Below, piece after piece: positions 2,878 to 36,362 of a stretch of DNA of 64,000 bases; the first letter of the stretch is position 1; each line of letters starts with the position of its first letter. The notes beneath the pieces were generated by a model that was not told where the DNA came from, searched no databases, and saw only the letters and a program-made list of their open reading frames with translations. The stretch spans positions 275,066-339,065 of the forward strand of contig CAWCIL010000007.1 of the NCBI GenBank assembly GCA_963795485.1, given 5' to 3'. The stretch is from an uncultured Alphaproteobacteria bacterium (lineage in GTDB: Bacteria; Pseudomonadota; Alphaproteobacteria; ATCC43930; CGMCC-115725). The position numbers and the translations under genes were made by a program.

Positions 2878-4038
2878 ATGCCCGCCACCCAAGAAAAGCT
2901 GATCTCCGGCGACAACCACATCGACCTGACCTATTGCCCGCCCGATCTTTGGTCGTCGGCAGCGCCGCAGAAGTGGAAGCAGACGGCGCCGCGCGTCGAG
3001 GAGCGGGAGGACGGCCTCCATTGGTTCGTCGACGGCCAGGACCGGGGCATGTGGAACGGCGTCGGGCCGGGTTTTCTCAAATACCAACGCGGGATGTTCA
3101 ATCATATCGACGAGATGAAAGATCTCGGCTTCGAGTGGGGCAACACGCGGGGCGTCGCGCCGCGGCCGACCACCCCCGAATTGCGGCTGGCGGATCTCGA
3201 CCGCGACGGTCTCGCCGCTGAAATCGTCTATGGCTGTTTGATGGTCAACGACCTGATCGAGGACGCGCCGCTTCGCGCCTGGACCGACAGGACCTATAAT
3301 GATTGGGTCGCCGATTTTGCCAAGCGGGCCGATCCGAGCCGGGTCTTTCCGCTCGCCATCATCCCCAACACCGACCCGCTCGAGGCCGCGGCCGAAGTGC
3401 GGCGCTGCGCCAAGCTCGGGCTGCGGGGCGGCGACCTCGCCTTCAAGCGGATGACCCCGCCGCTCTACACCGACATGTGGTTCCCCTTATGGGAGGCCGC
3501 GGCCGAGTGCCGCTTTCCGATCTCGTTCCACTCGACCGGGTTCAAGGCATTGCGCGCGCCTGACACGCCCGAGCAGGAGCAGAAGTATCTGGCCCAATGG
3601 CGACTGGTTCGCTCGGCATTGTTCCAGCTCGACACGATGGAGGTGCTGGTCTCGCTGCTCGCCTCCGGCGCCTGCGATAAATACCCCGATTTCAACTTCG
3701 TCCTGGGCGAGTCGGGCGTGACCTGGCTGCCGTATGTGTTCGACCGCCTCGACACCGAATACGCCGATCGGGCGAGGAGCCTCAATTTCAAGCTCAAGCC
3801 CAGCGATTATTTCCGCCGCCAGGGCTATGTCACCTATCAGCAGGACCAGTTCCTGGAGCCGATCATCCCACTGATCGGTGAGGACAACATCATCTGGGGT
3901 GCCGACTACCCGCATCCCGACTGCATCTGGCCCGGCTCGCACGCGACCCTCGATAAGAACCTCGCCGCGATCTCGCCCGCCGTGCGCCGCAAGATCACTA
4001 GCGAGAACGTGACCCGCCTCTATCAGCTGCACCAGTAG
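2878..4038 (+). CDS. Amidohydrolase-2 (ACMSD/metal-dependent hydrolase-like) family protein
   Basis: 386-aa intact ORF ending ...IIWGADYPHPDCIWPGS..., typical of the PF04909-type amidohydrolase fold. AGGAG-like RBS upstream. Confidence 0.8.
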   Translation: MPATQEKLISGDNHIDLTYCPPDLWSSAAPQKWKQTAPRVEEREDGLHWFVDGQDRGMWNGVGPGFLKYQRGMFNHIDEMKDLGFEWGNTRGVAPRPTTPELRLADLDRDGLAAEIVYGCLMVNDLIEDAPLRAWTDRTYNDWVADFAKRADPSRVFPLAIIPNTDPLEAAAEVRRCAKLGLRGGDLAFKRMTPPLYTDMWFPLWEAAAECRFPISFHSTGFKALRAPDTPEQEQKYLAQWRLVRSALFQLDTMEVLVSLLASGACDKYPDFNFVLGESGVTWLPYVFDRLDTEYADRARSLNFKLKPSDYFRRQGYVTYQQDQFLEPIIPLIGEDNIIWGADYPHPDCIWPGSHATLDKNLAAISPAVRRKITSENVTRLYQLHQ

Positions 4039-9173: not shown

Positions 9174-9235
9174 ACGGCCGTGCTGGCGCTAACACCCGGC
9201 GGCCGGGATTGCGTTCCCTTGCCCGCCGTCCTATA

Positions 9236-9323
9236 TCTGCGCCGTCGGTCTACCGACTATGGCGATACACGGCTTGCGGAATAAGCGTTGCGGACCCGGG
9301 GGCAGTACCCGGCGCCTCCACCA
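9236..9323 (+). ncRNA. ssrA: Two-piece (permuted) tmRNA, acceptor piece ending in encoded CCA
   Basis: T-arm CCGGG-ggcagta-CCCGG, then GGCGCCTCCACCA (9311-9323). The 3' strand CGCCUCC pairs with the 5' end of the coding piece. Confidence 0.8.
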
Positions 9324-9359
9324 CCCTCACCCCCCGCCACTTCAGCGGGGTCATGCTAC

Positions 9360-9560
9360 GGGGGCGAAACAGGCTCGACGCGCGTAGTAAAGGTAAGATC
9401 CGTCGCCCGGCATGATACCACCGTTATCGGGTCATAACCTAGCTGCGAACGATAACTTCGCAACAGAGGCGCTCGCGGCCTAACCCCTAGCGGGGTAAAA
9501 GCCTAGAGCAAATCGCGGTTCGAGGGGCACCGGGCAACAGAAGCCCCTCACTCGCGCCCG
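9360..9560 (+). ncRNA. ssrA: Two-piece tmRNA, coding piece (tag ANDNFATEALAA)
   Basis: 5' GGGGGCG (9360-9366) forms a 7-bp acceptor stem with CGCCUCC, including G3:U70. Tag reading frame gct gcg aac gat aac ttc gca aca gag gcg ctc gcg gcc taa at 9442-9483. The 3' end is approximate. Confidence 0.8.
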
Positions 9561-21633: not shown

Positions 21634-22093
21634 TTGGCCCCGATCCCACTACGGCTGATCGTCGGTTACGGCTTCATGGAGCATGGCGTCGCCAAGTTGG
21701 CCAGGGGCCCCGATGCGTTCCCCATAATTTTGCAGGCGCTTGGCGTGCCCCCGCCACATCTCATGGGATGGCTCACTATCTTGGTTGAGGGTATTCGGCG
21801 GTCTGGCCGTACTTCTCGGTGCGACGGTGCCGCTCGCGAGCATACCGATGGCGGCGGTTCTGCTGGTTGCCATTTTTACCGTGCATCTGCCATACGGCTT
21901 CAGCTCGATCAAGCTCCAGGCTGTGACGACGGCCGGCGCACAGTTTCGGCCGCCCGGCTTTGAAACCGATCTCCTTTATCTCGCCTGCCTTGCGGCTTTC
22001 GTCTTGGGAGGCTCAGGACCATTGGCGATCGAGGGCTTGCTGACAAAGCGCAGAGATCACGCCTCCTTCGATGCAAACCGGGGAACTAAGTGA
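21634..22093 (+). pseudogene. DoxX-family membrane protein with a 1-nt frameshift near 21790
   Basis: PLRLIVGYGFMEHGVAKL...WLTILVE then a frame change to VFGGLAVLLGATVPLASIPMAAVLLVAIFTVHLPYGF... There is an extra G in the gaggg run. Confidence 0.75.
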
Positions 22094-22353
22094 ATGAAAA
22101 GAGGTCATCCCCGTTCGGGAGCGCACCAGACCAGGATCGGCTTGGGTTAAGGTGGCCTTTCGGGCACGAAGAGCAGTCCCAGTCGCCAAGGCATCGGCTT
22201 GCCGGATCAATAAGCCGACCGTGCCCGGGAGCTCGGCAACGGGTCGGATGCGCCGCAAGCTGACCTCTGCGATCACAGGTGCCTTGTTACCGGTACACCG
22301 TGACGAGGTGTGCTGGCAGTACCCAACCCGCTGGTCCTCACCCGCGTCGTCGA

Positions 22354-23040
22354 TCAGAAAGGCAAGACGACAGCAGCCAGCCCGCCGACCACGCCGATAG
22401 CCACGATCCCTACGGCTACGGTCGCGAGCAGCCGAAGACGAAAGGCGCCCCCGACCATGGCAAGCGAGGCCACGCTTATCGGCGGCAACACCACCAGCAG
22501 CACGCCTGCTGGACCGACCCCTACCCCCAGCGACAGCATTGCTTGAATGATCGGAACCTCTCCGGCCGTGGGGATCACAAACAGCGTGCCGGCGACGGCG
22601 AAGGCAAGGATCCACCCGAGGCTTTCGCCGACTTCCGGGCCCACATGGGGAAAGAGCCAGGCGCGCGCCGCGCCGAGCAGCAGCACGAGCACGATGTATT
22701 CGGGGATCAGCCACAGGGCCAACCGAGCGAAGATGGTCAGCCATCGTGGTGAACGGGTTGCCCAGCGGTGTCGGCCGCATCTCCGCCAGTTGCCGTTCCA
22801 CGGCGTCCGCTTCTTCGGGCGTGGCCATCCGGTTGGCGATGAGGCCGAGGCCCAGGACCGCAACAATGCCGAGCACGAGCCGCAAGGCGGACCACCGCCA
22901 ACCGAGCACGAAGCCGATAAAGACAAGGGTCGCCGGGTTCAATATCGAGTTGCCCAACCAAAAGGCGATGGCTGCTCCGGCCGAAGCGTTGGCCTTGCGC
23001 TGTCCGCCGCGGTCCGACGCGACGTCATGATGCCGGGTGT
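22354..23040 (-). pseudogene. Predicted permease (DUF318/ArsP_1-like), N-terminally truncated and frameshifted near 22745
   Basis: AGAAIAFWLGNSILNPATLVFIGFVLGW... in one frame continues as LTIFARLALWLIPEYIV...FVIPTAGEVPIIQAMLSLGVGVGPAGVLLVVLPP in another. Similarity stops abruptly at about 23040. Confidence 0.6.
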
Positions 23041-23300
23041 CTGGGGCGCGAGATTGAGGTCTTCTATCCATACCATCCGCTTGCCGGGCAGACCGCGATG
23101 GTCGTCGCCGATCAGATCCATGACGGCTGTCGCCACCTGAACCTTCGATCGGAGGATGGCGCCTCGTTTCTCGTGCCCGCTTGGATGACGCAGGATGAGG
23201 CATCCTGCGTCAAGATCGTTGACGCACCGTGTCTATCCCTCCGCCGGCTCCTTGAGCTGCGAGCGTTTGTAGACTCGGTTTTAGCCTCTCACGCGGGGGA
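23041..23300 (+). CDS. Module-1 ORF-a: small protein with YPYHPLAGQ...VPAWMT motif (DUF5372-like by recollection)
   Basis: VFYPYHPLAGQTAMVVADQIHDGCRHLNLRSEDGASFLVPAWMTQDEASCVKIVDAPCLSLRRLLELRAFVD is paralogous to ORF-a of module 2. The start codon is unresolved, and the frame stays open to 23505 where its TGA overlaps the recombinase ATG. Confidence 0.45.
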
Positions 23301-23326
23301 AGAGGTCCCCGGTAAAGGAGGCGTCG

Positions 23327-23521
23327 ATGATGATGCGTCGGATATTCCCGCAACCGGATTTGTTCGAGACTCCGCCGCCGCGGATGGTGCTCGCTCCGGC
23401 GGAGCGGACGAAGTTGATCGATCAGCTGCGGGTGTTGCTGATGGAGGCGATGGCGACACCGCACGCCGCCGGCGGCACCCAGGATCAATGGGAGGCGGGC
23501 GATGACGAAGATCACGCCTGA
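23327..23521 (+). CDS. Module-1 ORF-b: 64-aa protein with strong RBS, overlapping the recombinase start
   Basis: AAAGGAGG lies 6 nt upstream of ATG 23327. MMMRRIFPQPDLFETPPPRMVLAPAERTKLIDQLRVLLMEAMA is paralogous to the frameshifted ORF-b in module 2. Confidence 0.5.
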   Translation: MMMRRIFPQPDLFETPPPRMVLAPAERTKLIDQLRVLLMEAMATPHAAGGTQDQWEAGDDEDHA

Positions 23522-25562
23522 CCATCTGGCGAGAGGCGCCTTCGTTTACGTACGTCAGTCGACGGCCATGCAAGTCGCCCATAACTTAGAGAGCCAGCGA
23601 CGGCAGTACGGCTTGGCGGACCGCGCCCGCCAACTGGGGTGGCAGGATGTCGAGGTGATCGACGATGACCTCGGCCGATCCGGAGGTGGCGCCAGAAGGC
23701 CAGGCTTCGAGCGGCTGCTTGCCGCCATCTGCGAGGGCCGCGTCGGCGCGGTGATGTCTGTGGAGGCCTCCCGGTTGGCCCGGAACGGGCGCGATTGGCA
23801 TACGCTGCTGGAGTTCTGTGGCCTGGTCGGCACCGTGATCATCGATGAAGATGGCGTCTACGATCCAGCGTCTCCCAATGATCGGCTCCTGCTTGGCATG
23901 AAGGGCACGATGAGCGAGATGGAGCTGTCTGTCTTCCGCCAACGCTCTATCGAGGCGATGAAGCAGAAGGCGGGCCGAGGCGAGCTCTTTCTGACCGTCG
24001 CCGTGGGCTACGTGAAGGGCGGCCGTGACAACATCGAGAAGGATCCGGACCGGCGGGTGCAGGAAGCCGTCGCCCTGGTGTTTCGCAAGTTCACGGAACT
24101 GCAGACGATCAGGCAGGTCCTGGTGTGGCTCCGGCAGGAGAAGATACCGCTACCGGTCCTGACCGTCGGCGACGCGGCGGATCGGGTTATCTGGCGAGCC
24201 CCGGTATATCCGACGGTCCATCACATCCTGACCAACCCGGTCTACGCTGGTGCATATGCCTTCGGCCGCAGGACCATGCGCCTCGTCATCGAGAACGGGC
24301 GCAAGCGCATCATTCGGAGCATGCAACGCGACTGGCGTAGCTGGAGTGTTTTGATCCAGGATCACCATGAGGATTACATTCCCTGGGTCGAGTTCGAGAG
24401 GAATCAGCACCTGATCGCCGACAACGCGAACGGCAAGCGGTTCATGAGCCGCGGCGCCATCCGCCGCGGCGAGGCTCTGCTGGCTGGTCTCCTGCGCTGC
24501 GCGCGGTGTGGGCGGAAGCTTCATGTCCGTTACAGCGATGGAGCGCCGCGCTACCAATGCGTCGGCGCTTTCAATCATCTCGCCGCGGCGCGGTGCATAA
24601 TTTTCAGCGGGGCGCGCCCCGACCGGATGGTGTCCAAGGAGGTGCTCGACCGCCTTCAGCCCATCGGCGTGGAAGCGGCCCTTGCGGGGATCGACGCCCG
24701 CAGCCAGAAGGGCTCGGAGAAGCGAGACCAGCTCGAGTTCGCTCTGCGCCAGGCGCGCTACGAGGCAGCTCGCGCGCAGCGCCAGTATGACGCCATCGAT
24801 CCGGACAACCGGCTTGTGGCCGGAGAGCTGGAGCGTCGGTGGAACCAGCGCCTTGTCGCGGTGCGCAACCTTGAGGTTGAAGTTGATCAGCTCGACGCCG
24901 GAACGGAGCAGGCTCTCACCAGCGTCGACCGGGAACGTCTCATGGCTCTTGGGCGAGACCTGACCATAGCCTGGGATAGCCCTGGAGCCACGCCGGAGAC
25001 GCGCAAGAAGATCATCCGCACCGTCATTTCGGAGATCATCGTCGATGTCGTTGGCGACATGCTAGAGTTGGTCATTCACTGGCAAGGCGGCGATCACACC
25101 GCTCTGACGGTGAAGAAGAACCGCAATGGCCGGACGGACTGGTGCACCGACGACGATATCGTTGATCTCGTGCGCGCCTTGGCGCGCCACATGCCCGACC
25201 AGACGATCGCCGCCGTACTCAATCGACTAGGCAAGTCGACCAGCCACGGCCACAGCTGGATCCGCGGCAGCGTCTGCTCCCTACGGCATCAGAATGACGT
25301 CGCCATCCACCGACCGGGAGAACGCGCCGAGCGCGGTGAGGCGACGATCAACGAGGCCGCGGTGGCCCTGGACATCAGCACGACTACCATTCGTCGTCTG
25401 ATCGCGAGCGGCGCTCTGCCCGCGACCCAACCGTGCAAGGGCGCGCCTTGGATCATCCGGCAAGCTGACCTGGCATGCGCATCCGTTCGTAATGAAGCAA
25501 GCGCGCGCCGGTCACGACGCCCGTCGCCTGATGATCGCCAACAAAATATCCTGTTTTTATAA
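23502..25562 (+). CDS. Large serine recombinase (resolvase catalytic domain, recombinase domain, Zn ribbon, coiled coil, C-terminal HTH), intact
   Basis: YVRQSTAMQ...SVEASRLARNGRDWHTLLEFC; CARCGRKLHVRYSDGAPRYQC; C-terminal EAAVALDISTTTIRRLIASGALPA. 686 aa with no disruptions. Confidence 0.92.
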   Translation: MTKITPDHLARGAFVYVRQSTAMQVAHNLESQRRQYGLADRARQLGWQDVEVIDDDLGRSGGGARRPGFERLLAAICEGRVGAVMSVEASRLARNGRDWHTLLEFCGLVGTVIIDEDGVYDPASPNDRLLLGMKGTMSEMELSVFRQRSIEAMKQKAGRGELFLTVAVGYVKGGRDNIEKDPDRRVQEAVALVFRKFTELQTIRQVLVWLRQEKIPLPVLTVGDAADRVIWRAPVYPTVHHILTNPVYAGAYAFGRRTMRLVIENGRKRIIRSMQRDWRSWSVLIQDHHEDYIPWVEFERNQHLIADNANGKRFMSRGAIRRGEALLAGLLRCARCGRKLHVRYSDGAPRYQCVGAFNHLAAARCIIFSGARPDRMVSKEVLDRLQPIGVEAALAGIDARSQKGSEKRDQLEFALRQARYEAARAQRQYDAIDPDNRLVAGELERRWNQRLVAVRNLEVEVDQLDAGTEQALTSVDRERLMALGRDLTIAWDSPGATPETRKKIIRTVISEIIVDVVGDMLELVIHWQGGDHTALTVKKNRNGRTDWCTDDDIVDLVRALARHMPDQTIAAVLNRLGKSTSHGHSWIRGSVCSLRHQNDVAIHRPGERAERGEATINEAAVALDISTTTIRRLIASGALPATQPCKGAPWIIRQADLACASVRNEASARRSRRPSPDDRQQNILFL

Positions 25563-26019
25563 GGACATGATGAGATGAGCAGTATGAAGCGCCCTCGTCG
25601 GAGCCGGCGAACAACCATGATTTTCTGCCAAGGGCAATGCCACGCAATGCGCGTTCGGCGGCGTTGTTCGAGAGGCAGATGCGGCCGTCTTCGAGGAACC
25701 GGGTGAACGCCGGCCAGCGCTTGAGCATGTAATCCATCGCCTTGGCGAGATCATTGCCGCGCGAGAGCTTGGGCCGCTGCTCGCGCAGCCAGCGCTCCAG
25801 ATCGGCGACCAGCGGCGCGCTCAATTCCTGCCGGACAGCCCGACGCCGCTCGGCGCTCTGGCCATTGATCGCGCGTTCGATCCCGAACAGGGCGTCGATG
25901 CGCCGGACCGCTTCCAGCGCCAGCGGCGAGATCACGCCGGTGGTTTTGCCTTGCGCCGTGCGGCGGGCATTGGCGGTGAGATCGGCCATTTGGAAGAACG
26001 GTCGGCGGGCATGCGCCCA

Positions 26020-28035
26020 GCTTGCGTCAGGACAAGTCCTGGAAAGGGGGATGGATGTGACCTGAAACCTTTCATCGTGACCCAGAGGGTTCGACGCCCT
26101 CCCGGCAAAGGTGGAGGCCGCCGGCCGGAAGCGAGTTCTTGCATGGGTGACGGCAACGCCGCTCGTGAAGCGTAGACAGCGGGTACTGAAGCCCTGTGGC
26201 AGCCTCGAAATCATGGAACGCCGAAGCCTTCGCCGTGTTGGGCGCGGGGGCAGCACCGGGAAATCCGCGATGGCCAGGATGACCGGTTCGGCCGGGGTCT
26301 GGGAGCAGGGCAAAGGTACGGGACGGGTCACCAGGGAACCTGAGAGATCCCGCTTGTGTCCGTGTGGAAGCGGCCGGTCCCGGAGCGCCGGCTGAACAAC
26401 GCTCCTGGCCTGACGATGCGCTTGGGCATCATCGGGAGCGCATCCGCGAACACGAACAGCCAAGCACCCACGGAATTCCGAGGCGAAACCATAAGCCGAG
26501 GGACGTGCACGGCGGGATGTCGTAGCGGCTTCGTAGTACCGAGGAAGGCGGGGAACCGGGCTCACCGGGACCCGCTGGAGGAAAGGGGGCCGCCGCGCGC
26601 ATAGACCCATTGACGAGAAACACGGGAGGGAACTCTGAGTCCCATAAACCTGTCCACGAAACGACAATGGATAGCCGATCTGGCGAGGGAACATCCTGAG
26701 CGGGTGCTGACCTCGCTGCATCACCTGATCGACCGCGAATGGATGATGGAAGCCTATCGCCTGACGCGCAAGGATGGCGCGCCGGGCATCGACGGCATGA
26801 CGGCGGCGGATTATGAGGCGGACCTCGAGGCCAATCTTGACGACCTCCTGACGCGCATCAAATCCGGCCGCTACATCGCGCCGCCGGTGCGGCGGCACTA
26901 CATCCCGAAGGCAGACGGGACGAAACGGCCACTGGGCATCCCGACGCTGGAAGACAAGGTGGCGCAGCGGGCGATCCTGCTGCTGTTGGAGCCGATCTAC
27001 GAAACGGACTTCTTGCCTTGCTCGTACGGCTTCCGACCGGGACGGTCGGCCCATGACGCCCTTCACGCCCTGCGCGTCGGGTTCATGGAACAGGGGCTGC
27101 GCTGGGTGGTGGATGTCGATATCTCCAAATACTTCGACACCATCGACCACGCGCACCTGCGCCAATTCCTCGACCAGCGAGTGACGGACGGCGTCGTCCG
27201 GAAGATGATCGACAAATGGCTGAAAGCGGGGGTGCTCGAAAAGGGCGTCCTCCGCCGCACGACTGGCGGAACGCCCCAAGGGGGCGTGATCTCGCCGCTG
27301 CTCGCGAATATTTATCTGCACTACGTGCTGGATGAGTGGTTCGAGGGGACGGCGCGGCCACGGCTCAAAGGGCAATGCCAACTGATCCGATATGCAGATG
27401 ATGCTGTGATGGCCTTCGAGGACCACCTGTCCGGCAAGCGAATGCTGGACGTGCTGGGCAAGCGCCTTGGCCGGTATGGGCTTCGGCTCCATCCGATCAA
27501 GACCCGCTTCGTAGACTTCCGGTTCAAACGCCCTGACGGGCGCCATCCCGCAACGATGGGAACGACGTTCGACTTCCTTGGATTCACCCACGTGTGGGGC
27601 AAGTCCCGGAATGGCAAGAACGTAGTTCGGCAAATAACGGCGAAAGACCGGTACGCACGCGCGCTGGCTTCCGTGACGGAGTGGTGTCGGCGAAACCTGC
27701 ACCGCCCGTTCAGGGATCAGCATGCCCATCTGACGCGGATGATCCGGGGACACTGCGCCTACTATGGCATCACGGGAAACAGCCGGCGGATCAGCTGGTA
27801 CCACCACCAGCTCTTGCGGATATGGAAGAAATGGCTCGCTCGGCGCGGGCGTCACAGCAATCTGCCGTGGCCGCGCTTCAAAGCCATGCTCACACGGTAT
27901 CCCTTGCCGCCAGCCTTGATCGTCCACCAGTACAACGTCGCCTGAGCGAACCTTGCGCGCGAAGAACCGGATGCGGGTAATCCGCACGTCCGGGTCTGTG
28001 AGGGGCGGGGATGGCAACACCCCCGCCTACTCGGC
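26020..28035 (+). mobile_element. Group II intron (about 2.0 kb) inserted antisense into IS66 tnpC
   Basis: RT/maturase ORF, a domain V-like hairpin at 27964-27996 and a domain VI-like hairpin at 28003-28033. The insertion is delimited to +/-2 nt by the split Cys-Trp codons of tnpC (ITEAAC|WAHARR). Confidence 0.85.
26704..27945 (+). CDS. Group II intron reverse transcriptase/maturase (no endonuclease domain evident)
   Basis: RT motifs [49 protein letters not shown]/maturase region [12 protein letters not shown]. The true start is probably upstream (about 26634, non-ATG). Confidence 0.9.
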
Positions 28036-29120
28036 AGGCCGCCTCGGTGATCCGGTTGCCGGCGAACAGCTCATTGAAGCCGGCATAACCGTCGGCGTGG
28101 ATGATGCCGCGGAAGTCCTTCAGATGCTCCTTCGGGTGCTCGCCCTTGCGGTCCGGCGAATAGAAGAACAGCGCCGCCGGCGGGCGTGCGCCGGCAAACG
28201 GCCGCTCGTCGCGGACATAGAGCCTGCCCTCGCGAAGGCGGGGGTCCACAACCTTCCGGTCTTGGTCTTGCCGGTGCCCGGCGCCAACACCGGCACCGGC
28301 GTGTCGTCGACATGCAGCACCTCCGAGCCCATCACCTCGGCGGCGAGCGCGTCGACCAGCGGCGCCAACGCCGCCGCGGTCGCCCCGACCCAACCGGACA
28401 GCGTCGAGGTTTCCAGGGTGATGCCCTCGCGGGCGAAGATCTCGGCCTGGCGATAGAGCGGCAGATGATCGTCGTACTTCGATACCATGATATGGGCGAG
28501 CAGCCCCGGCGCGGCGCGGCCGCGGGCGATCGCGTGATCGGGCGCCGGCGCTGCGACCACGGTGTCGCAGGTGCGGCACGACAGCTTCTCGCGGACATGC
28601 CGGATCACCTTGAAGCGGCCGGGCACGTAGTCGAGGGTCTCGGTCACATCCTCGCCGATATGGCGCAACGCGCCGCCGCAGGACGGACAGGCGCCAGGCG
28701 CGTGATGCCTCACTTCTTCGCGCGGCAGGTGATCGGGCAGCGGTCGGCGCGCCGGCTTCTGCGCTTCGACTGCCGCCGCCTCGATCGCCGCCGCCGCCGA
28801 GGGCGAGGCGGCGGCGGTCCGCTCGGCTTGGTCAGTTTCCAGCGTCTCGATCGCCAACTCGAGTTGATCGATCTCGCGGCCCAGCTTCTCCGACGAGCGC
28901 CCGAACTCGGCCCGCCGGTAGCGCGCCAGCTGGAATTTGAGTTTGGCGATCTCGGCTTGCGCCGTCGTCGCGTCACGCGCCATATCGGCGATGATCCGCT
29001 TCAGCGCGGCAATATCGTCGGGCAGGCTCTCGGGTGCGATCGTCACGCCCGCCATTGGACAGGACTGCTGGTGGTCGGGCCCCGCCAAACTGGGGCTGAG
29101 TCAATCGGCCGCAGCCAGGC

Positions 29121-29335
29121 TCACCCGGCCAGCTCGGGCCGCCAGGTTTTCTGCGGCATCCGCCAGTCGATCCCGTCCAGCAGCATCGACAATTGCGCCC
29201 GCGTCAGCACCGCCACGCCCTCATCGGCGCGCGGCCAGACGAATCGGCCTCGCTCCAGCCGCTTGGCGAACAGGCACAGCCCGTCGCCATCCCACCACAG
29301 CAGCTTGATCAGATCGCCGAACCCCACGTCATTCA
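29121..29335 (-). pseudogene. tnpB: IS66 tnpB (Orf2), C-terminal part only
   Basis: GDLIKLLWWDGDGLCLFAKRLERGRFVWPRADEGVAVLTRAQLSMLLDGIDWRMPQKTWRP. The upstream part of the track ORF is not homologous. Confidence 0.8.
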
Positions 29336-29356
29336 GCATACCGATCGCAATTTGTT

Positions 29357-29640
29357 GTGGTCGCGTACCCCTGGCATCCGCTCCACGGCGAGCGCGTTCG
29401 CGTTTACGGCCGGCAGGGGCGTGCCGGCCGTCAGATCCTTTACATCGAGGTCCGGCCGGGTCTGTCGCGCGAGATCCCGGCATGGATGTGCGATGCCGCG
29501 GTGTGTGCGGCGATCACATCGGGCAGCGCGAGGATCGCGATTGATGCGCTGACTGAACTCCGGGCCGTTCTCGACACCCGTTCGGCCGGGCTGTCCTCCG
29601 ACGGATCATTGACCTCCTCGACGGCGAAGGAGGGTTCAGA
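29357..29640 (+). CDS. Module-2 ORF-a (paralogue of 23041-23300)
   Basis: GTG start; VAYPWHPLHGERVRVYGRQGRAGRQILYIEVRPGLSREIPAWMCDAAVCAAITSGSARIAIDALTELRAVLD. Begins about 20 nt from the truncated IS66 tnpB. Confidence 0.45.
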
Positions 29641-29808
29641 TGAGACGTTGCTCTCCGCAATCAACTGGTGCTCGATCTCGATCGCGGCGGAAAACGCCTC
29701 CCGCCGGCAGCGGCGCCGGAGGAGCTGCTCCAGGCTTTGGCCGACCTGCTTCTCGAAGCTCTCGCCAAGCAAAACAATGCGATACCGGCCGAGCGGGAGG
29801 CGCTGTGA
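29640..29808 (+). pseudogene. Module-2 ORF-b, frameshifted after about 7 codons
   Basis: GAAGGAGGG RBS and ATG 29640 (MRRCSPQ, compare MRRIFPQ in module 1). Homology then continues in another frame (LVLDLDRGGKRLPPAAAPEELLQALADLLLEALA...REAL*), with TGA overlapping the recombinase ATG (TGATG). Confidence 0.4.
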
Positions 29809-31903
29809 TGCATCCCAAGATCACGCCTGACCACCTCGGCCGCGGTGCGGTGGTCTATGTGCGCCAGTCGACCATGGGCCAGGTCGCGGAGCACACCGAG
29901 AGCCAGCGGCGACAATACGCGCTGGCCGAATCGGCGCGGTCGCTCGGATTCGCTTCGGTCACCGTGATCGACGACGATCTCGGCCGATCCGGTTCCGGAT
30001 TGGTCGAGCGTCCCGGCTTCCAGAAACTGGTGGCCTCGGTCTGCTCGGGCTTGACCGGCGCGGTGTTCTGCATCGAGGCGTCCCGCCTTGCCCGGAACGG
30101 ACGCGACTGGCACCACCTGATCGATCTGTGCGCCCTCGTCGGCACGCTGGTGGTCGATCCGGACGGCACTTACGATCCTCGCCTGGTCAATGATCGCCTG
30201 CTCCTGGGGCTGAAGGGGACGATGTCCGAATACGAGCTGAGCCTGCTGCGCCAGCGCGGAATTGCGGCGCGGGATTCGAAGGCGCTGCGCGGCGAATTGC
30301 GGTTCATCCTGCCGCCCGGCTATTGCTGGAACGAGATCGGGCAGATCGAGATGGACCCTGACGAGCGCGTCAGCGGGCTCATCCGGCTGTTGTTCGACAA
30401 GTTCCAGGAGCTCGGAAGCGCTCGCCAGGTCCTGCTTTGGGCGCAGGATCAGGCGCTGCAACTGCCGATTACCCGGCGCAATAACAGCAGCGTGTGCAAG
30501 ATCGAGTGGCGGCCGGCGGCCTACCACACGGTGCTGCAGATCCTCAGGCATCCGGTCTATGCCGGCGCCTATGTCTTCGGCCGCACAACCCAGCGCACGC
30601 GCATCGTCGAGGGGCGCGCCCGCAAGACCACCGGCCATTCGAAGCCGATGACCGCATGGAACGTCCTGCTGCGCGATCATCACCCCGGATACATCAGCTG
30701 GGAACAGTACGAAGCGAACCAGAAGCTGATCTCGGAGAACGCCCATATGCAGCGGCGGACCGAACGCAAGTCGGCCCGCGGCGGGCGGGCCCTGCTGACC
30801 GGATTGGTCCGTTGCGGCCGCTGCGGCCGGACGATGCGGGTGTTCTATGGTTCGCAATCCGGCCACGCTCATCGCTACCAATGCCGCGGCGACGACAGCC
30901 ATGTCGGCGGATGGCTGTGCATCGGCATCGGCGGCGTCCGGATCGATCGCGCCGTCGCCGCGCAGATCGTCGAAGCCGTCTCGGAACATGCCGTCGAAGC
31001 CGCAATTCAGGCCGCGGAGCAGTCGGTGAAGGCCGACAACGAGATCCGGCAGGCGCTTTGCCGCGAACTTGAGGAAGCACGTTACGAGGCCTCCCTGGCC
31101 GCCCGCCGCTACGAAGTCGTCGACCCGGCCAAGCGGCTGGTCGCGCGCGAACTCGAAACCCGCTGGAACACGGCGTTGGAGCGGGTCGCCCATCTCGAGG
31201 ATCGCATCGCCCGGCATGATGCTGCCGCGGCGCTTCGCCCGAAGGTCGATCGCGCGGCGCTTGATGGCGCTCGCCCGGGATCTACCGGCGACATGGAATG
31301 CGCCGGGTACGGATGCCCGAACCAAGCAGCGGATCACCCATATCCTGATCCGGGAAGTCGTGCTCGACCGCGACGACGCCACCAACGAGGCGCTCGTCAC
31401 GATCCATTGGAACGGTGGGCGGCACACTGAATTGCGCGTCTCGCGCGTGCGAACCGGTCGCTATCCGGCCGATCGCCACCCGAGCCCGGTAGAGGCGATC
31501 CGCAAGCTCGGCGGCCAATTGCCGGATCGCGAGCTGGCCGTGACGATGAACCGGATGCGATGCAAACCTGCTGACGGGAACGCCTGGACCACCGTTCGCG
31601 TGCGCGAGCTTCGCGAGCGGCTCGGCATCGCGCGCTTTCGATCCGACGCTACCACGCGTCGAAACGATCAGCGCCGACGCTGCCGCGACCCGGCTGGGCA
31701 TCTGCGTCGGCTCGGTCCAGAAGCTCATCCGCAAGGGCGTGCTTCCCGCGACGCAGCTGATGCCGTCGGCGCCTTGGCAAATCCCGGTCGCCGCGCTCGA
31801 AACCGAGGCCGTCAAGACAGGCGCACGCGAAATCGCCGGCCGCCGGCCCAAGTTCTACAAGCGTTTCCAAGAGGATAAGACCCTCCGGCTCCCCAGTCTC
31901 TGA
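29808..31903 (+). pseudogene. Large serine recombinase paralogue with at least 2 frameshifts (about 31255 and about 31650)
   Basis: MHPKITPDHLGRGAVVYVRQSTMGQ...CIEASRLARNGRDWHHLIDLC; CGRCGRTMRVFYGSQSGHAHRYQC. The C-terminal region is readable only by frame-hopping (ALMALARDLPATWNAPGTDARTKQRITHILIREVVLD... then ISADAAATRLGICVGSVQKLIRKGVLPA...LPSL*). Confidence 0.85.
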
Positions 31904-31949
31904 ACGAAGGATGCACTATGTCGCTCGGTCCCCGCGGCGGCCGCGAAAG

Positions 31950-32642
31950 CAGAACACGTGGCCCGAGAACGGGTCCTGTCCGAGCACGCTCTGAGCCTGC
32001 GCCGCCAGGCCGTCGAACCCCTTGCGCACTATCGCCGGCTTTTCCTGACCCGCCTCCAGGAGGCGTTCGATGCCGGCCAGCTCAGGTTTTTCGACAGTCT
32101 GGCGAGCTTGGCCGCACGAGGTGTATTCGCCGCCTGCCTGCGGCCATTGCGCGCCATTCCCTGGGTCGTTCTATGCCAAGCGACCGTTCGGCGGCCCCGA
32201 ACAGGTGCTCGACTATCTCGCCCGCTATACCCATCGCGTTGCCATCGCCAACAGCCGCCTGGTCGGGCTCGCCGACGGCCGGGTCAGCTTCCTGTGGAAG
32301 GACTATCGCCACCACGACAAGCGAAAGGTGATGACCCTCGACGCCGACGAGTTCATCCGCCGCTTCCTGCTCCACGTCCTGCCCGACGGCTTCCATCGCA
32401 TCCGCCACTACGGCTACCTCGCCAACGGCAGGCGCGCCGCCAAGCTCGCTCATTGCCGCCATCTGCTGGCCGCCCCGGAGCCGGCGCCGCCTCCCGCCGC
32501 CGCCGATTACCGCGAGCGATACCAGCAGCTCACCGGCCATTCGCTCGACCTCTGTCCGTGCTGCGGCGGCCGCATGATCGAGATCGCTATCATCCCCCGC
32601 GCGACCGCCTTTGCCGCCACGGCTCCCTGGAATACCTCATGA
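31950..32642 (+). mobile_element. IS91-family (Y2 rolling-circle) transposase, C-terminal relic with frameshift
   Basis: YAKRPFGGPEQVLDYLARYTHRVAIANSRLVGLADGRVSFLWKDYRHHDKRKVMTLDADEFIRRFLLHVLPDGFHRIRHYGYLAN...CPCCGGRM. Confidence 0.75.
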
Positions 32643-33164
32643 TCTCGCCACGAGACCGATCAAAGCCTCATATTCCCACAGCGGCTCGGGCTATCGATGC
32701 CGCTATCGTGCCCGCACGTCTTGCCGCTGGTGCCAGGTGTCATCCGGACATTCATCCCCCGAGCCGACGGCGACTCTCGGCGCTATCCATCCGCCGCCGC
32801 GCCGAGACCGCCACCATAATCCCGCCCGCGGCTCCCCGGCGCGTCACCGCGAATCGACAGTGTCTCCTCGCCTCGATCACCGGCAGCGCTCAATCCCCAT
32901 AGGCCGTGAACTCGATCCGCGGCTTCGTTCAATCAGGCTTCTGTGCAATCCCGCGATCCCACTGCGCTCGATGGACCGTGTCACCGACGCGGGATCGCGC
33001 AGAACCCTCATTCATTCTCGTGAAACGCGCACCAGGTCGAGGCAGCGTTTCCTGACTATCACGAGTTACTTCGCTGGGATTTGTTCTGGCCCACGCATGG
33101 CGGATGCAGAACGACATGTTCTTTTCCCCGACGAGCGTTACCGCCGGCCCAGTGCCCGCGCGGG

Positions 33165-34421
33165 TCAAGCGTGTGGTATACCCGCTTCGGATCGCGTCCG
33201 CGTGCGCGCTGCGTCACCATCTCTCTCCGGGCCCCCCAAAGGCGGATAACGGTAGACAAGATGCGGATAAGCCTGCTCGGCGAAGGCACCTTCCTTCTGT
33301 ACCAAGTCTTGCTCGACTGCCTGCAGAGCCCCAAGGCAATCATGGATTAGCGGGTCATCGAAGATGATATAAGCGCCGCGCACAGCGTATCTCTTGCTAA
33401 ATCCTATAGAGAACCTTACAGATTTGTAGATATCACAATCGACATGGGATAGGGCAAAATTTCGTTCCTCGACTGGGATCATCCGCTCGGCGGTCTCCTG
33501 AAACAAGCCTTTGATGAAGATCAGATTGTCAAGCTGCAATTCCTGCTTTATCTTCTCCAGCTCATCCAAGTTCACCTGAGAGAAGCCACCGGCCCGGTGC
33601 ATATCTAGGACGGGATCGCAATCCGGCATCCCGGCAAATGTGTCTAGGGAATAAACTTTAAATGGTCTTCCCAACCTTTTAAGAAGGGTTGCCATGAAAA
33701 TCGAAGACCCTCCCCGATATGCGCCGAATTCGATGATATTCCCCTGCATTTCCGAATACTTGATGATCAGAAAAATATTCATGAGGCAGAGATTTCCGAC
33801 AATGCTCCTCCCCCGCGAAGCGGCCACAGCGGCGATCCAATCCGGGTCATGAGTGATAAACGGGACAAGCGTACCGAGTGCCAAACCGCTGCCTCTGAGA
33901 TAACCGGCCTTGATGTTCGGGCCGGCTTTGATGCCGGGATTCTCAGCGACCGGAGCGGTCTGCGCCTTCTCGAGTTCTCTCAACTTTGGCGGTACAATTC
34001 CGCGCGCGGACAAATCGTCCATTGCTACCTTGTTCAAGATTATCTCAGAAATGACCAAGCGTTTTGAGGTTGGTGTTCTAATGACGACCACCTCGAATTG
34101 GGCAATATCCGTATCCGCGCTAAACAAGATCGCCGCGTCGGCAGATGATACGATCTGTTCATGTAACAACCGACCGCCGCTGTTACAGGTCAGCCTTAAC
34201 CGGAACTCACCGACTAATTTGTCCGCCAAGTGCACTAAATATAATCCCCGTTGTAGCGGAATATAGGGACCATAGAATAGCGTGTCGTGCGCGATAAGAC
34301 CAGAATTTGCAGAGTTGTATGAAAAAATGCCATCTACGGCAAGTGTGCTAGCCATGGCGCGTAACCAGGGAGGAAGGTGGAGCGCGGGCGCCTTGATAAC
34401 GATCTGAAGCAATGACATCAT
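33165..34421 (-). CDS. TylF/MycF-like SAM-dependent O-methyltransferase with an about 200-aa N-terminal extra domain
   Basis: GNIIEFGAYRGGSSIFMATLLKRLGRPFKVYSLDTFAGMPD...HVDCDIYKSVRFSIGF...GAYIIFDD. The last about 25 codons run into GC-rich flanking DNA, so the native 3' end is uncertain. Confidence 0.75.
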   Translation of the reverse strand: MMSLLQIVIKAPALHLPPWLRAMASTLAVDGIFSYNSANSGLIAHDTLFYGPYIPLQRGLYLVHLADKLVGEFRLRLTCNSGGRLLHEQIVSSADAAILFSADTDIAQFEVVVIRTPTSKRLVISEIILNKVAMDDLSARGIVPPKLRELEKAQTAPVAENPGIKAGPNIKAGYLRGSGLALGTLVPFITHDPDWIAAVAASRGRSIVGNLCLMNIFLIIKYSEMQGNIIEFGAYRGGSSIFMATLLKRLGRPFKVYSLDTFAGMPDCDPVLDMHRAGGFSQVNLDELEKIKQELQLDNLIFIKGLFQETAERMIPVEERNFALSHVDCDIYKSVRFSIGFSKRYAVRGAYIIFDDPLIHDCLGALQAVEQDLVQKEGAFAEQAYPHLVYRYPPLGGPERDGDAARTRTRSEAGIPHA

Positions 34422-36362
34422 TTCCCCCGGTCGCTGATAGCGCTGTTTAACAGAATCAGGTTCTCGATCAAACTCGTCCTAGCGGCCAAATCGTTGTTCA
34501 GGTAGTAGCCCAAACCCGACAATCCGACATAAAGCCGGCGTGCGTCTCCGTTGCCAACTTCCGTTTCCCTCAGGTGTCTTTCGATGTAGATATTGAGAAA
34601 GCCGTCATCATCGACGGCTACCTTGCACCTCACCCATCTCGGTGCGCCGAGAGACGTCAAGGCCACGGAATTCCCAACGGAATTGGACACCCAAACCTGC
34701 TGGTCCGCGTCATAGGGCGGCAGACGCAACTCTAGGTACAGGCTCGCCTCTTGGCCGGCGTGCTCGGCGCCGAGATTCAGCCGCAGCTGCGCCCGGCGCT
34801 TGGACGACCACGAACCCCAGGGTTCCAATGGGTGCCATCCCGAGTAACGAACCAGCCTCATCAATTGATGAGGCCACGAGGTCCGTGATCGTTCAAGCAA
34901 TGCATCGCCTGTGAGTTTATAAAGCTCGCCCGATTTATCGGTATTTTAATCGGGCGCGATTGGATGCGAGCCCCGTCACCGTTCCGGATTACCTCCATGC
35001 AGTCGCCGACCCGTTTCAAGAAGTTTTCGGTGACGCTCCGCCCGACCGCCGCGGGGTAAACTCAGCTTCGATCCGCGCGGCGAGGCCACCAAGGAAACTC
35101 TCGTCGAAGATCGCCTTCTCAAGCAGCGCGGTCGCGCCGATTAGGTCGTGTGGGTTGAAGTAGACAGCAAGATCGCCGCCGACCTCTGGGATAGAGCTGG
35201 CGTTAGACGCTAGGCAAGGCTTTCCGAACGCAAGGCTTTCACCGACCGGAAGACCCCACCCCTCGACAAAGCTCGGGAAAACCGTGAACATGCACCGTTC
35301 GTACAGGTAGGATAACTCGCCATCGCCCAAATCCGACTCTATGACTATCTTCCCTTCCAGGAAATTGCCCTTGTTACACATTTCACGAAAATCATCAATG
35401 GCCCAGCCCCACCTTCCGACCAAAACCAGCTGCGGGACTTTTTCCGCGCCATGTTTGCGGATCAGGGAAGACCATACGCGGTAAAGCAGGACATGGTTCT
35501 TTCTTCCCTCCAACGTGCAGACGCATAGAACAAATGGTTGATCCGCAGCGGCCGCCAACCCGTCAGAAATGACGTGCTCCACACCATCCGCAGGTTGAAG
35601 GATTTCGTTGGCTAACGGCACGGCGTGCACTAGTTTCTCAACTCCAAGCTCAGATTTAAGAAGTTCTTTTAGCTCGACCGCGACATATTCCGAAATAGTG
35701 AGAAAAAAATCTGAAAGGGACAAAATCTCAATGAGTTTTTCCTTCACTATCGCCTGAAACGATTCGACACAATATTGAGGGTGGCTGATCGGAATCAGGT
35801 CATAAATATAGGTGGCAGTGAGGACCCCCGTGTCCCGCAGGTGAAGCAGAGGCAATCCGTAATCGTGGTTCCAGAATGCTCCCAAAATCACATAAACATC
35901 GCCAGCTCTCGGCACCGCCGAACTAGCGTCCCTCATCAAATCGGCGAGCATCGTACGAAGGATATCACGGTCCACCGAGGGAGAAAGCGTATATTTGATG
36001 AGAATCCGAAGCTGCCCAGGCTTGAACGCGATCAACCCGTCGTGATCGGGAGAAATTGCGCAACAGACGATATTGTCTGCCTCCTGCCTACTGTCGAGAT
36101 GGCAGCTTATGATGTTCCCGGCTACGCGTTGAATTCCAGTGACTCGCGTGTTGTGGTGGAAAAATAAGATGAGATCGGAAATGTCCAAGTAAAATACTGG
36201 CGAATTGATCTGCTGCTGCTTTGCGTGGTCCTGCGTATCGAGCGTCGAAACATTGACCTCAGAAGACGCTTTCAACTGATCATCTCCTTGTCCGCTGAGC
36301 GCGGCAAGTCTGCTCCCATATTGCGCTGTTGCTTCTTGCTCGCTGCAACCCGCGAGGCACAA
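34418..36362 (-). pseudogene. GT4 (Glycos_transf_1) glycosyltransferase with about 150-aa C-terminal domain, 2 frameshifts (about 35040, about 34940)
   Basis: ...VLCVCTLEGRKNHVLLYRVWSSL...EGWGLPVGESLAFGKPCLASNASSIPEVGGD...EAEFTPRR, then frame-hops to SVTENFLKRVGDCMEV... and to GELYKLTGDALLERSRTSWPHQLMRLVRYSGWHPLEPWGSWSSKRRAQLRL... Confidence 0.75.

Follow-up and report, generated by a model that had tools for sequence, protein, structure and literature searches.

Within a 64,000-nt stretch of DNA from an uncultured Alphaproteobacteria bacterium (GenBank assembly GCA_963795485.1, contig CAWCIL010000007.1, positions 275,066 to 339,065; hereafter the window, numbered from its first letter), two same-strand modules each carry three genes in one order: an open reading frame (ORF) of the DUF5372 family, termed ORF-a, a small ORF-b, and a gene of about 690 codons for a large serine recombinase (LSR). 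An earlier reading of this DNA made from its letters alone (the sequence-only reading) had pointed out this shared order and had distinguished an intact from a decayed module. Both observations hold: module 1 remains intact, whereas the ORF-b (ORF-b2) and the recombinase (LSR2) of module 2 carry frameshifts. The parts of the two modules, including the ends that we assign to them, are listed here.

23013-23014, + strand: left TC dinucleotide of module 1, the putative crossover core (attL); TC lies on both sides of every element of the tnpC class described below
23015-25597, + strand: module 1 element, 2583 bp, with imperfect terminal inverted repeats of ~20 bp and TC on each side
23015-23038, + strand: left terminal inverted repeat (P' arm) of module 1, CGACGCGACGTCATGATGCCGGGT; identity with contig L004 begins here, and the repeat is conserved in 64 elements
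23014-23505, + strand: body of ORF-a in module 1 (ORF-a1), with the DUF5372 domain at ~23065-23277 followed by an unconserved tail; no start codon in this context
23327-23521, + strand: ORF-b1, 64 amino acids (aa) with an acidic C-terminus; ribosome-binding site (RBS) AAAGGAGG at 23314-23321
23502-25562, + strand: LSR1, intact, 686 aa; Resolvase, Recombinase, Zn_ribbon_recom and C-terminal HTH_17 (Pfam)
25575-25597, + strand: right terminal repeat (P arm) of module 1, ATGAGCAGTATGAAGCGCCCTCG, which carries a conserved start codon
25598-25599, + strand: right TC dinucleotide of module 1 (putative attR core)
29317-29318, + strand: left CC dinucleotide of module 2, matching the CC at 31932-31933
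29319-31931, + strand: module 2, a decayed element of a sister subfamily, with left end GAACCCCACGTCATTCAGCATACC and CC on both sides
29318 onwards, in module 2: ORF-a2 (DUF5372)
29640 onwards, in module 2: ORF-b2, frameshifted
29808-31903, in module 2: LSR2, in three frames
31918-31920, + strand: ATG in the right end of module 2
31932-31933, + strand: right CC dinucleotide of module 2

The recombinases have the domain content of LSRs, namely a resolvase-type N-terminus, a recombinase domain and a zinc beta-ribbon. PF00239 spans positions 1-144/145 (E 9e-26 for LSR1, E 5e-21 for LSR2), PF07508 and PF13408 are matched in both proteins, and the motif YVRQST was read by eye around the expected nucleophile. 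The PHROG 95 integrase family matches LSR1 over aa 13-537 (E 2e-56), the nearest solved structure to LSR1 is that of SPbeta SprA/YokA, and aa 615-657 form a C-terminal helix-turn-helix (HTH) resembling excisionases. Over aa 3-466, LSR2 and LSR1 share 50% identity; beyond this, LSR2 runs on in two further frames (29817-31223 in frame 3, 31258-31641 in frame 1 and 31676-31849 in frame 2), so that it carries two frameshifts where at least two had been proposed. The overlap of the LSR1 start codon with an upstream stop, also reported earlier, is an ATGA shared with the ORF-a1 stop (TGA at 23503-23505).

The limits of these elements were established by comparing copies. The exact LSR1 protein is also encoded on the 2898-nt metagenome contig L004, which is 99.88% identical to positions 23013-25601 of the window and has unrelated flanks on both sides. 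A scan of one genome per species yielded 372 relatives, and 80 loci were retained; several of the genomes are multicopy (five copies in one, seven in another), and many matches are contigs of 2.6-3 kb, several of which stop close to the element ends and two (L030 and L039) exactly there. Within one metagenome-assembled genome (MAG), exactly 2594 bp are common to the copies at 99.9% identity while the flanks differ, and the geometry is that of the window, with 489 nt ahead of the LSR start and 38-39 nt past the LSR stop. Altogether, 64 complete elements of 2548-2598 bp have ends conserved to the base, with a left end of CGAnnCnnCGTCATnnTGCCGGGTGTC, a right end of (A/G)TGnGCAnnATGAAGCGnnnTCG and imperfect inverted repeats of ~20 bp. 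The search for further copies that the sequence-only reading had recommended provides conserved boundaries. Its proposal of a compact LSR-based mobile unit is likewise upheld by base-exact ends, near-identical copies in different flanks, multicopy genomes and one head-to-tail contig described below.

In structure, the elements also conform to the operational definition of an insertion sequence (IS), being short and multicopy, ending in inverted repeats and encoding only mobility functions in three ORFs; for transposition itself, the evidence is indirect and consists of near-identical copies at different sites and one head-to-tail junction. The codons of the left repeat of module 1 (23015-23038) show no wobble at their third positions, a sign that the constraint acts on the DNA, and the terminal repeats would be the two arms of a putative attP. 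Module 1 appears to be functional and recently mobile, whereas module 2 is a dead relic. Given that LSRs are best known as integrases of phages and of integrative and conjugative elements (ICEs), and that the IS-rich region lies downstream of a transfer-messenger RNA (tmRNA) gene, one could instead suspect that the three genes are not autonomous and only serve to integrate something larger, such as a prophage, an ICE or a genomic island. We consider this extremely improbable, because identity between copies breaks off on either side within 1-2 bases of the 2.58-2.6 kb unit, cargo is absent, a 2600-nt period is seen in one contig, and the targets are IS genes rather than tRNA or host genes.

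Each subfamily of these elements is found at a single short coding motif of another transposable element, rich in glycine and highly conserved. When an element is removed together with one dinucleotide, uninterrupted reading frames result for IS66 TnpC, for IstB-like Walker A proteins, for one IS256-type transposase and, in the case of module 2, for TnpB. Elements of the module 1 class always reside in IS66 tnpC, at ..NRKNALFAGS-D-GGGE(H/N)WA..IASLIE (hyphens here and below mark points of insertion or joining), and the tnpC frame is restored with a single copy of the dinucleotide. Every copy of this class with a readable target frame is antisense to tnpC, a single orientation being expected because the core is non-palindromic. 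The tnpC half-site consensus is GA CGGCGGCGGCGA, and the target site (putative attB) is TTCGCCGGCTCC GA CGGCGGCGGCGAG, the longer stretch being TTCGCCGGCTCCGACGGCGGCGGCGAG; the class-A attB and attP consensus sequences are alike. A second class occupies the Walker A motif of IstB-like ATPases, ..NVVLVGGP-GTGKTHLA.., in either orientation, and one element is found in an IS256-type transposase gene. Empty tnpC and tnpB sites are present in the same loci. In the window, the same dinucleotide stands on both sides (TC for module 1, CC for module 2) and the target frames are restored with one copy of it, as in conservative exchange at a 2-bp core without longer target duplication.

Module 2 is a member of a sister lineage often met on rhizobial and Azospirillum plasmids (551 records, ~72% identity). 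Its relative on Rhizobium etli p42a lies in IS66 tnpB at FRGKRG-DLIK with GG on both sides, and the relatives L101 and L102 (on both sides) and L103 (on the left side) have GG at the same tnpB site in the opposite orientation. At L103, on plasmid AZO_p6 of Azospirillum lipoferum 4B, both flanks are tnpB 5' halves in opposed directions (DLYVFRGRRG and, antisense, GRFLFRGRR), which suggests that two inversely oriented copies of the element underwent an inversion. At L102, on Rhizobium sophoriradicis pCC511_5, the 215-aa 'IS66 accessory protein TnpB' of RefSeq (3357-4001) is a TnpB N-terminus fused in frame to ORF-a, and this fusion is made by a 1-nt difference from R. etli p42a. A further observation concerns loci L009-L013 in the MAG CAWAIS01, where five copies share ~4.3 kb at 97-99.9% identity, extending beyond the 2583-bp element to include the surrounding IS66. 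Such sharing would follow from movement of IS66 together with its insert, or from repeated hits on identical copies of IS66.

The most unusual feature of these elements is the arrangement of ORF-a. The sequence-only reading had likened ORF-a to DUF5372 (Pfam PF17342, gathering cut-off 25 bits), and this was right for ORF-a1, which scores 33.4 bits; ORF-a2, at 19.1 bits, falls below the cut-off. The likeness of the two proteins, which the same reading had set as a test of its proposal, is significant (36% identity over 76 aa, E 4e-12), and both carry the motifs that it quoted. However, ORF-a1 has no start codon at 23041, where it had been placed, and the first in-frame ATG, GTG or TTG beyond the preceding stop lies at 23098, already within the domain. 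The same deficiency is widespread in the family, in that an in-frame start before the sequence YPFHP is absent from 36 of 56 distinct left ends, and 30 of 50 distinct integrated copies have no in-frame start supplied by the flank.

A start codon is instead found at the other end of the element. It lies exactly 23 nt from the right end in all 50 distinct copies (ATG in 43, GTG in seven), and 12 nt past the LSR stop in 40 of these, sometimes fewer. In module 1, this ATG (25575-25577, 12 nt after the LSR1 stop) opens a 43-aa ORF in the integrated state (25575-25706) that runs into the flank, and when it is joined to 23014 through one TC, it is in frame with ORF-a. The predicted joined ends of module 1 are ...GAAGCGCCCTCG TC CGACGCGACG..., and this virtual junction reads ATG AGC AGT ATG AAG CGC CCT CG-TC-CG ACG CGA CGT CAT GAT GCC..., giving MSSMKRPRPTRRHDAGCLGREIEVFYPYHPL... 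on translation. In all 64 virtual junctions that we constructed, the right-end start is in frame with ORF-a and free of stops. The virtual junction of module 2 (ATG TCG CTC GGT CC-CC-GA ACC CCA CGT CAT...) is in frame with ORF-a2, and an in-frame right-end start is also present in the module 2 lineage and in a four-gene variant in istA, despite their different end sequences. With the start of ORF-a in the right end and its body at the left end, a whole gene would form only through head-to-tail joining of the ends. The joined ORF-a comprises 163-172 aa; in ~55 of the 64 elements, its stop either overlaps the start of the LSR gene or directly adjoins it (ATGA or TGATG).

Codon-position entropy reveals third-position wobble in frame a at 23041-23280, so that the DUF5372 domain is coding from about codon 18, and the tail of ORF-a and the 17 junction-encoded codons carry no signal of protein-level selection. 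An AlphaFold model of ORF-a (mean predicted local distance difference test score 73.7) has four strands followed by helices. No family in PHROGs or NCBIfam matches ORF-a, and DUF5372 proteins account for 371 cluster representatives among 1.84 billion proteins. Among them is the 2901-aa protein P0095, in which eight distinct segments match DUF5372 (best E 3.6e-11); such a repeated setting is unexpected for this domain.

Joined ends are also present in natural sequences. In L105, a contig of 2719 nt from JGI sample 3300055024, nt 1-119 recur at 2601-2719 with one mismatch, which corresponds to a period of 2600. The order is the LSR 3' end, then GTGAGCATTATGAAGCAGGCTCG-GG-CGAAGCAGCGTCACAATGCC, then an ORF-a of 170 aa that ends on the LSR start, and the core region of the junction reads GTGAGCATTATGAAGCAGGCTCG-GG-CGAAGCAGCGTCAC. 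The soil-catalogue protein P0003 (from SRR5271169) begins with MSSMKCPRPTGRHDAGCLGREIEV, which is a junction form. Among the public proteins examined, the only true junction forms are P0003, P0083 (from L105) and P0021 (from L108 and L109). Five other candidates (P0040, P0045, P0097, P0155 and P0089) were rejected as junction forms, because their starts lie in flanking DNA, for example antisense of tnpC at ..NWAL.. or antisense of the His codon after GK(S/T). The ORF-a copies in L108 (5001-5423) and L109 (1019-1441), two Logan contigs from SRR27875935 and SRR27875934, are contiguous, with right end, TC and left end joined and with their own RBS, but no LSR follows. They sit between a DEAD/ResIII fragment and an RHS/YD-repeat toxin gene, and each could be a relic of a tandem copy or a domesticated DUF5372 gene.

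Several observations weigh against a split gene in a circularizing element, and some of them fit a simpler view, in which the elements are mobile and the division of ORF-a is incidental. DUF5372 would then be made from the integrated copy through a start in the flank, a GTG valine codon or a non-canonical start, and the right-end ATG would be retained as part of a recombinase-binding arm. Indeed, the 17 junction codons are without wobble, and recombinase binding alone could explain their conservation. Some in-frame start is supplied by the flank in 20 of 50 integrated copies, and 20 of 56 left ends have a GTG valine codon in frame just ahead of the domain, upstream of YPFHP. Moreover, the public gene calls for P0040, P0097, P0155 and P0089 begin in the flank, and the Prokaryotic Genome Annotation Pipeline (PGAP) assigns an ATA start to the copy in Sinorhizobium fredii. 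The in-frame right-end start should also be counted as about three independent observations rather than 64, since all members share a common ancestor.

The evidence for the joined form itself has similar weaknesses. The single mismatch in the 119-nt overlap of L105 means that the contig may derive from a tandem dimer rather than a circle, and P0003 is without DNA on record, its catalogue having presumably been assembled at the protein level. Among metagenome contigs, a strict attP-junction pattern gave no matches, and a looser pattern, which fits 43 of 51 virtual junctions, gave 16, all by chance and with no LSR or ORF-a nearby; L105 comes from another collection than the contigs scanned. A sigma-70 consensus scan was empty at the L105 junction and inside module 1, although such a scan is unsuited to alphaproteobacterial promoters. 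The best PDB match of the ORF-a model, the small beta-barrel of eS4, is not significant (E 0.01, TM score 0.43), and the roles we consider below for ORF-a and ORF-b are purely inferred, with neither a family match nor a significant fold match behind them. Lastly, Walker A-class copies with unequal flanking dinucleotides (GG/AG, GT/GG, GT/CT and CT/GG) are not predicted by canonical LSR chemistry. These copies are at L055-L062, L044, L066, L075 and L083, with the same site serving in both orientations; the unequal dinucleotides could result from integration with a mismatched core that was resolved at replication.

Despite these points, we judge an incidental division of ORF-a to be unlikely. 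Starts in the flank are missing from 30 of the 50 copies, module 1 included, and they vary with the target. The right-end start alone is present in every copy and in three divergent lineages, with variation only between ATG and GTG, and the ORF-a stop adjoins the LSR start in most elements, as described above. We therefore think it probable that the modules are IS-like, LSR-driven elements of ~2.6 kb that insert at conserved motifs of other insertion sequences, and whose ORF-a is split so that it would become whole only on head-to-tail joining.

ORF-b1 overlaps the tail of ORF-a in another frame and ends 20 nt within LSR1, and ORF-b2 begins at 29640 behind GAAGGAGG; the strong RBS that had been noted in the sequence-only reading is thus found in both modules (AAAGGAGG and GAAGGAGG). 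The frameshift proposed for ORF-b2 is likewise evident, in that a 1-nt change of frame between 29643 and 29656 is needed to match intact relatives, and after this repair RNQLVLDLDR...LQALADLLLEAL aligns with RDQLVLQLER...EEALADLLLEAL of L101. The likeness between ORF-b1 and ORF-b2 that had been suggested is not significant in a pairwise comparison (E 0.05 over 7 aa), but homology is found at the family level. Across ~70 relatives, ORF-b forms one family, M..QxDLFE...ERxKAxxLLxALLxEA (..LADLLLEA.. in the module 2 lineage), and it always has a GGAGG-type RBS. Its core is coding in its own frame, with wobble in frame b at 23387-23446 by codon-position entropy.

No Pfam, NCBIfam or PHROG family matches ORF-b, and by searches of the same three collections it has no detectable similarity to any known directionality factor. 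Small recombination directionality factors such as SprB and TP901-1 Orf7 are ~60 aa in length, and ORF-b falls in that size range. On account of its size, where it lies and how it overlaps the start of the LSR gene, ORF-b is a candidate directionality factor.

One IS66 remnant on the - strand, extending over ~23000-32018, holds three insertions: module 1 and a group II intron in tnpC, and module 2 in tnpB. Module 2 is thus a simple insertion in the tnpB of the same IS66 copy that holds module 1. The features outside the modules are as follows.

22013-23003, - strand: ArsP_1/YraQ-type permease remnant, 5'-truncated (from HMM position 79) and with an internal frameshift, in two frames
22997-23003: ambiguous microhomology; ArsP_1 permease sequence runs leftwards from 22996
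23004-23012, - strand: IS66 tnpC stub that borders module 1 on the left; its codons R-G-G (CCGCGGCGG on the - strand) fit the tnpC consensus
25600-29088, - strand: IS66 tnpC, 5' part up to the insertion site (..GRKSWLFAGS-D); PF03050 positions 2-97 and 156-279 of 284, zf-IS66 and LZ_Tnp_IS66
26092-26307 and 27962-28035, + strand: Rfam matches (D1-D4 and domain V/VI) of a group II intron in tnpC, with its reverse transcriptase ORF (RVT_1) at 26704-27945
29121-29316, - strand: IS66 tnpB 3' part, left flank of module 2; the rebuilt TnpB fits PF05717 over positions 13-100 of 101, unbroken
31934-32018, - strand: IS66 tnpB 5' fragment, right flank of module 2, cut at ~32018 by an IS91-family relic
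32070-32642, within 32000-32902, + strand: the IS91-family relic (Y2_Tnp), which truncates tnpB ~85 nt to the right of module 2

Because the group II intron is antisense to tnpC, it cannot be spliced from the tnpC mRNA.

The sequence-only reading had described all four outer junctions as abutting unrelated truncated genes, and had proposed that recombination between two copies of one mobile unit scrambled the flanks. Two facts speak for such an event, since the left side of module 1 now adjoins a permease gene, and plasmid relative L103 has the two inversion-like tnpB 5' halves noted above. For the window, we consider it very unlikely. Module 2 is cleanly inserted, its flanks being contiguous tnpB halves with the IS91 relic only ~85 nt further to the right, and tnpC adjoins module 1 on both sides, with a canonical half-site on the right (25600 onwards, the half ending at PF03050 position 279/284) and a remaining 9 nt on the left (23004-23012). 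In addition, the modules belong to different subfamilies with different ends and targets, and their LSRs are only half identical. At the nucleotide level the modules are ~67-73% identical, and only in patches, which would make them poor substrates for mutual recombination.

The joint between permease and tnpC appears to have a separate origin. It falls within ~9 nt of microhomology, where a tnpC variant (L054) reads ..GGCCAGCGC.. and the permease ..GGCCTGCGC.., and it looks like an ordinary deletion, 10-18 nt outside module 1 and separate from the element. Five permease homologues read VV(V/I/A)GLR, followed in the two closest by RKANAS, and the window reads DRGGQRKANAS; the closest homologue (85% identical) has ..CCAAPVVVGLRKANASAGAAIAFWLGN... 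A further possibility, in which a copy of the element residing at a pseudo-site in the permease gene recombined with the copy in tnpC, was rejected for the left side of module 1, because the homologues have VV(V/I/A)GLR where the window has the tnpC-type RGG.

If the modules are elements with a split ORF-a, a working model can be proposed. The LSR would excise the element as a circle, in which the right end is joined to the left end through one dinucleotide, and the circle would re-insert conservatively by a 2-bp staggered exchange. A complete ORF-a would exist only across the head-to-tail junction, and ribosomes translating it would reach a stop codon that shares bases with the start of the LSR gene (ATGA). 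In this way, the joined form may switch on DUF5372 and boost LSR translation by coupling, while ribosomes on the ORF-a tail would cross the start of ORF-b and might occlude it. With ORF-b as a putative directionality factor, the element would in sum possess a state-dependent switch that favours re-integration, and IS genes would serve as safe, multicopy and horizontally travelling landing sites. Tentatively, then, and with the sense that it is somewhat more doubtful than probable, we suggest that the elements are a previously unrecognised IS class parasitising IS66, IS21 and IS256, in which DUF5372 acts as a sensor of the excised state that drives the LSR by coupling and silences ORF-b, such that the element excises when integrated and integrates when excised.

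Comparable systems share parts of this arrangement. The transposons Tn4451/Tn4453 (TnpX) and Tn5397 (TndX) are also moved by an LSR through a circular intermediate, with a conserved flanking dinucleotide and no longer target duplication. For Tn4451, the passage of PMC13023037 that cites Lyras and Rood (2000) states that the circle forms a promoter for tnpX. Unlike the modules, these clostridial transposons span 6-20 kb, carry cargo and resistance genes and use many targets. The TnpX/TndX clade of LSRs commonly has DUF4368 (bioRxiv 10.1101/2021.11.05.467528), whereas Pfam finds no match to this domain in the module LSRs; the modules also differ from TnpX/TndX-type transposons in having no cargo and one target motif per subfamily. 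Neither a DUF5372 gene nor a gene split across the ends occurs in the TnpX/TndX transposons. In ICEclc (Pcirc) and ICEKp1 (P3'end), the joining of ends after excision switches on a recombination gene (PMC13023037). There, the joining places a promoter ahead of a gene that is itself intact, whereas in the modules the reading frame itself is divided, with its start and body at opposite ends.

IS607 resembles the modules in its IS size, its serine recombinase and the lack of a target-site duplication. The TnpA of IS607 belongs to the small serine recombinases and has its DNA-binding domain at the N-terminus, and the element has no terminal inverted repeats and little target specificity (PMC6188088). 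The enzyme of the modules is a complete LSR that includes a zinc ribbon, and the elements have terminal repeats and strict targets; the NCBIfam model for IS607, NF033518, scores only 17.9 bits against a cut-off of 110. The phage serine integrases represented by SPbeta SprA/SprB have the same enzyme architecture and a 2-bp core exchange. Compared with SPbeta-type systems, however, the modules carry no phage or cargo, are multicopy, have their attB in other transposons and bear an extra C-terminal excisionase-like HTH on the LSR.

A related arrangement is the four-gene variant mentioned above, which on pNGR234a (NC_000914, 33989-37258) consists of genes for DUF5372, an HTH protein, an 88-aa protein and an LSR. 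The sequence-only reading had likened the modules to the multi-recombinase y4bA-D/y4pH-K repeats of rhizobial plasmids; the DUF5372-LSR cluster of pNGR234a would fit this comparison, but it has one recombinase rather than several, and the gene table of NC_000914 carries no y4 names. The copy on S. fredii pSF83666a lies in IS21 istA at ..PKDK-AKVE.., and the ATG in its putative right end is in frame with DUF5372. The variant thus shares with the modules the DUF5372-LSR pairing and, in S. fredii, residence in an IS gene, and it differs in its extra HTH gene, its different small ORF and its more distant LSR.

A search of the accessible literature found no paper on DUF5372, on y4bA, or on LSR elements within IS66 or IS21 genes. 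In RefSeq, the genes concerned go by no more than 'recombinase family protein', 'hypothetical protein' or 'DUF5372 family protein'. The elements belong to a known kind, the LSR-driven mobile elements, in a new form, and the two related types of 2.6-kb jumping element have seemingly not been described before. If our interpretation is correct, a cargo-free, IS-sized form is added to the known LSR-driven elements, and multicopy host transposons would offer it harmless sites as well as free rides on transposition and plasmids. It would clearly exemplify the homing of a mobile element into a different one, and such insertions must knock out copies of IS66 and IS21 on rhizobial plasmids and in symbiosis regions.

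For an element to divide one of its genes between its two ends would also be an unusually direct means of sensing the integrated versus the excised state. It would explain why annotation pipelines miss the gene or assign its start wrongly, and it would give a concrete, testable role to two uncharacterized families, DUF5372 and the ~60-aa ORF-b. Compact LSRs whose attP and attB can be read from genomes, in sister subfamilies with different sites, would furthermore be useful for engineering recombinase specificity.

Two observations concern the wider surroundings of the modules. A two-piece alphaproteobacterial tmRNA gene is located at 9205-9552 on the + strand (Rfam RF01849, 241 bits), with the IS-rich stretch ~14 kb downstream, and the region could be an island integrated at ssrA. 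Just to the right of the IS cluster, at 33000-36000, the G+C content falls from ~0.67 to 0.50-0.57, and a 418-aa ORF is located there (33165-34421, - strand).

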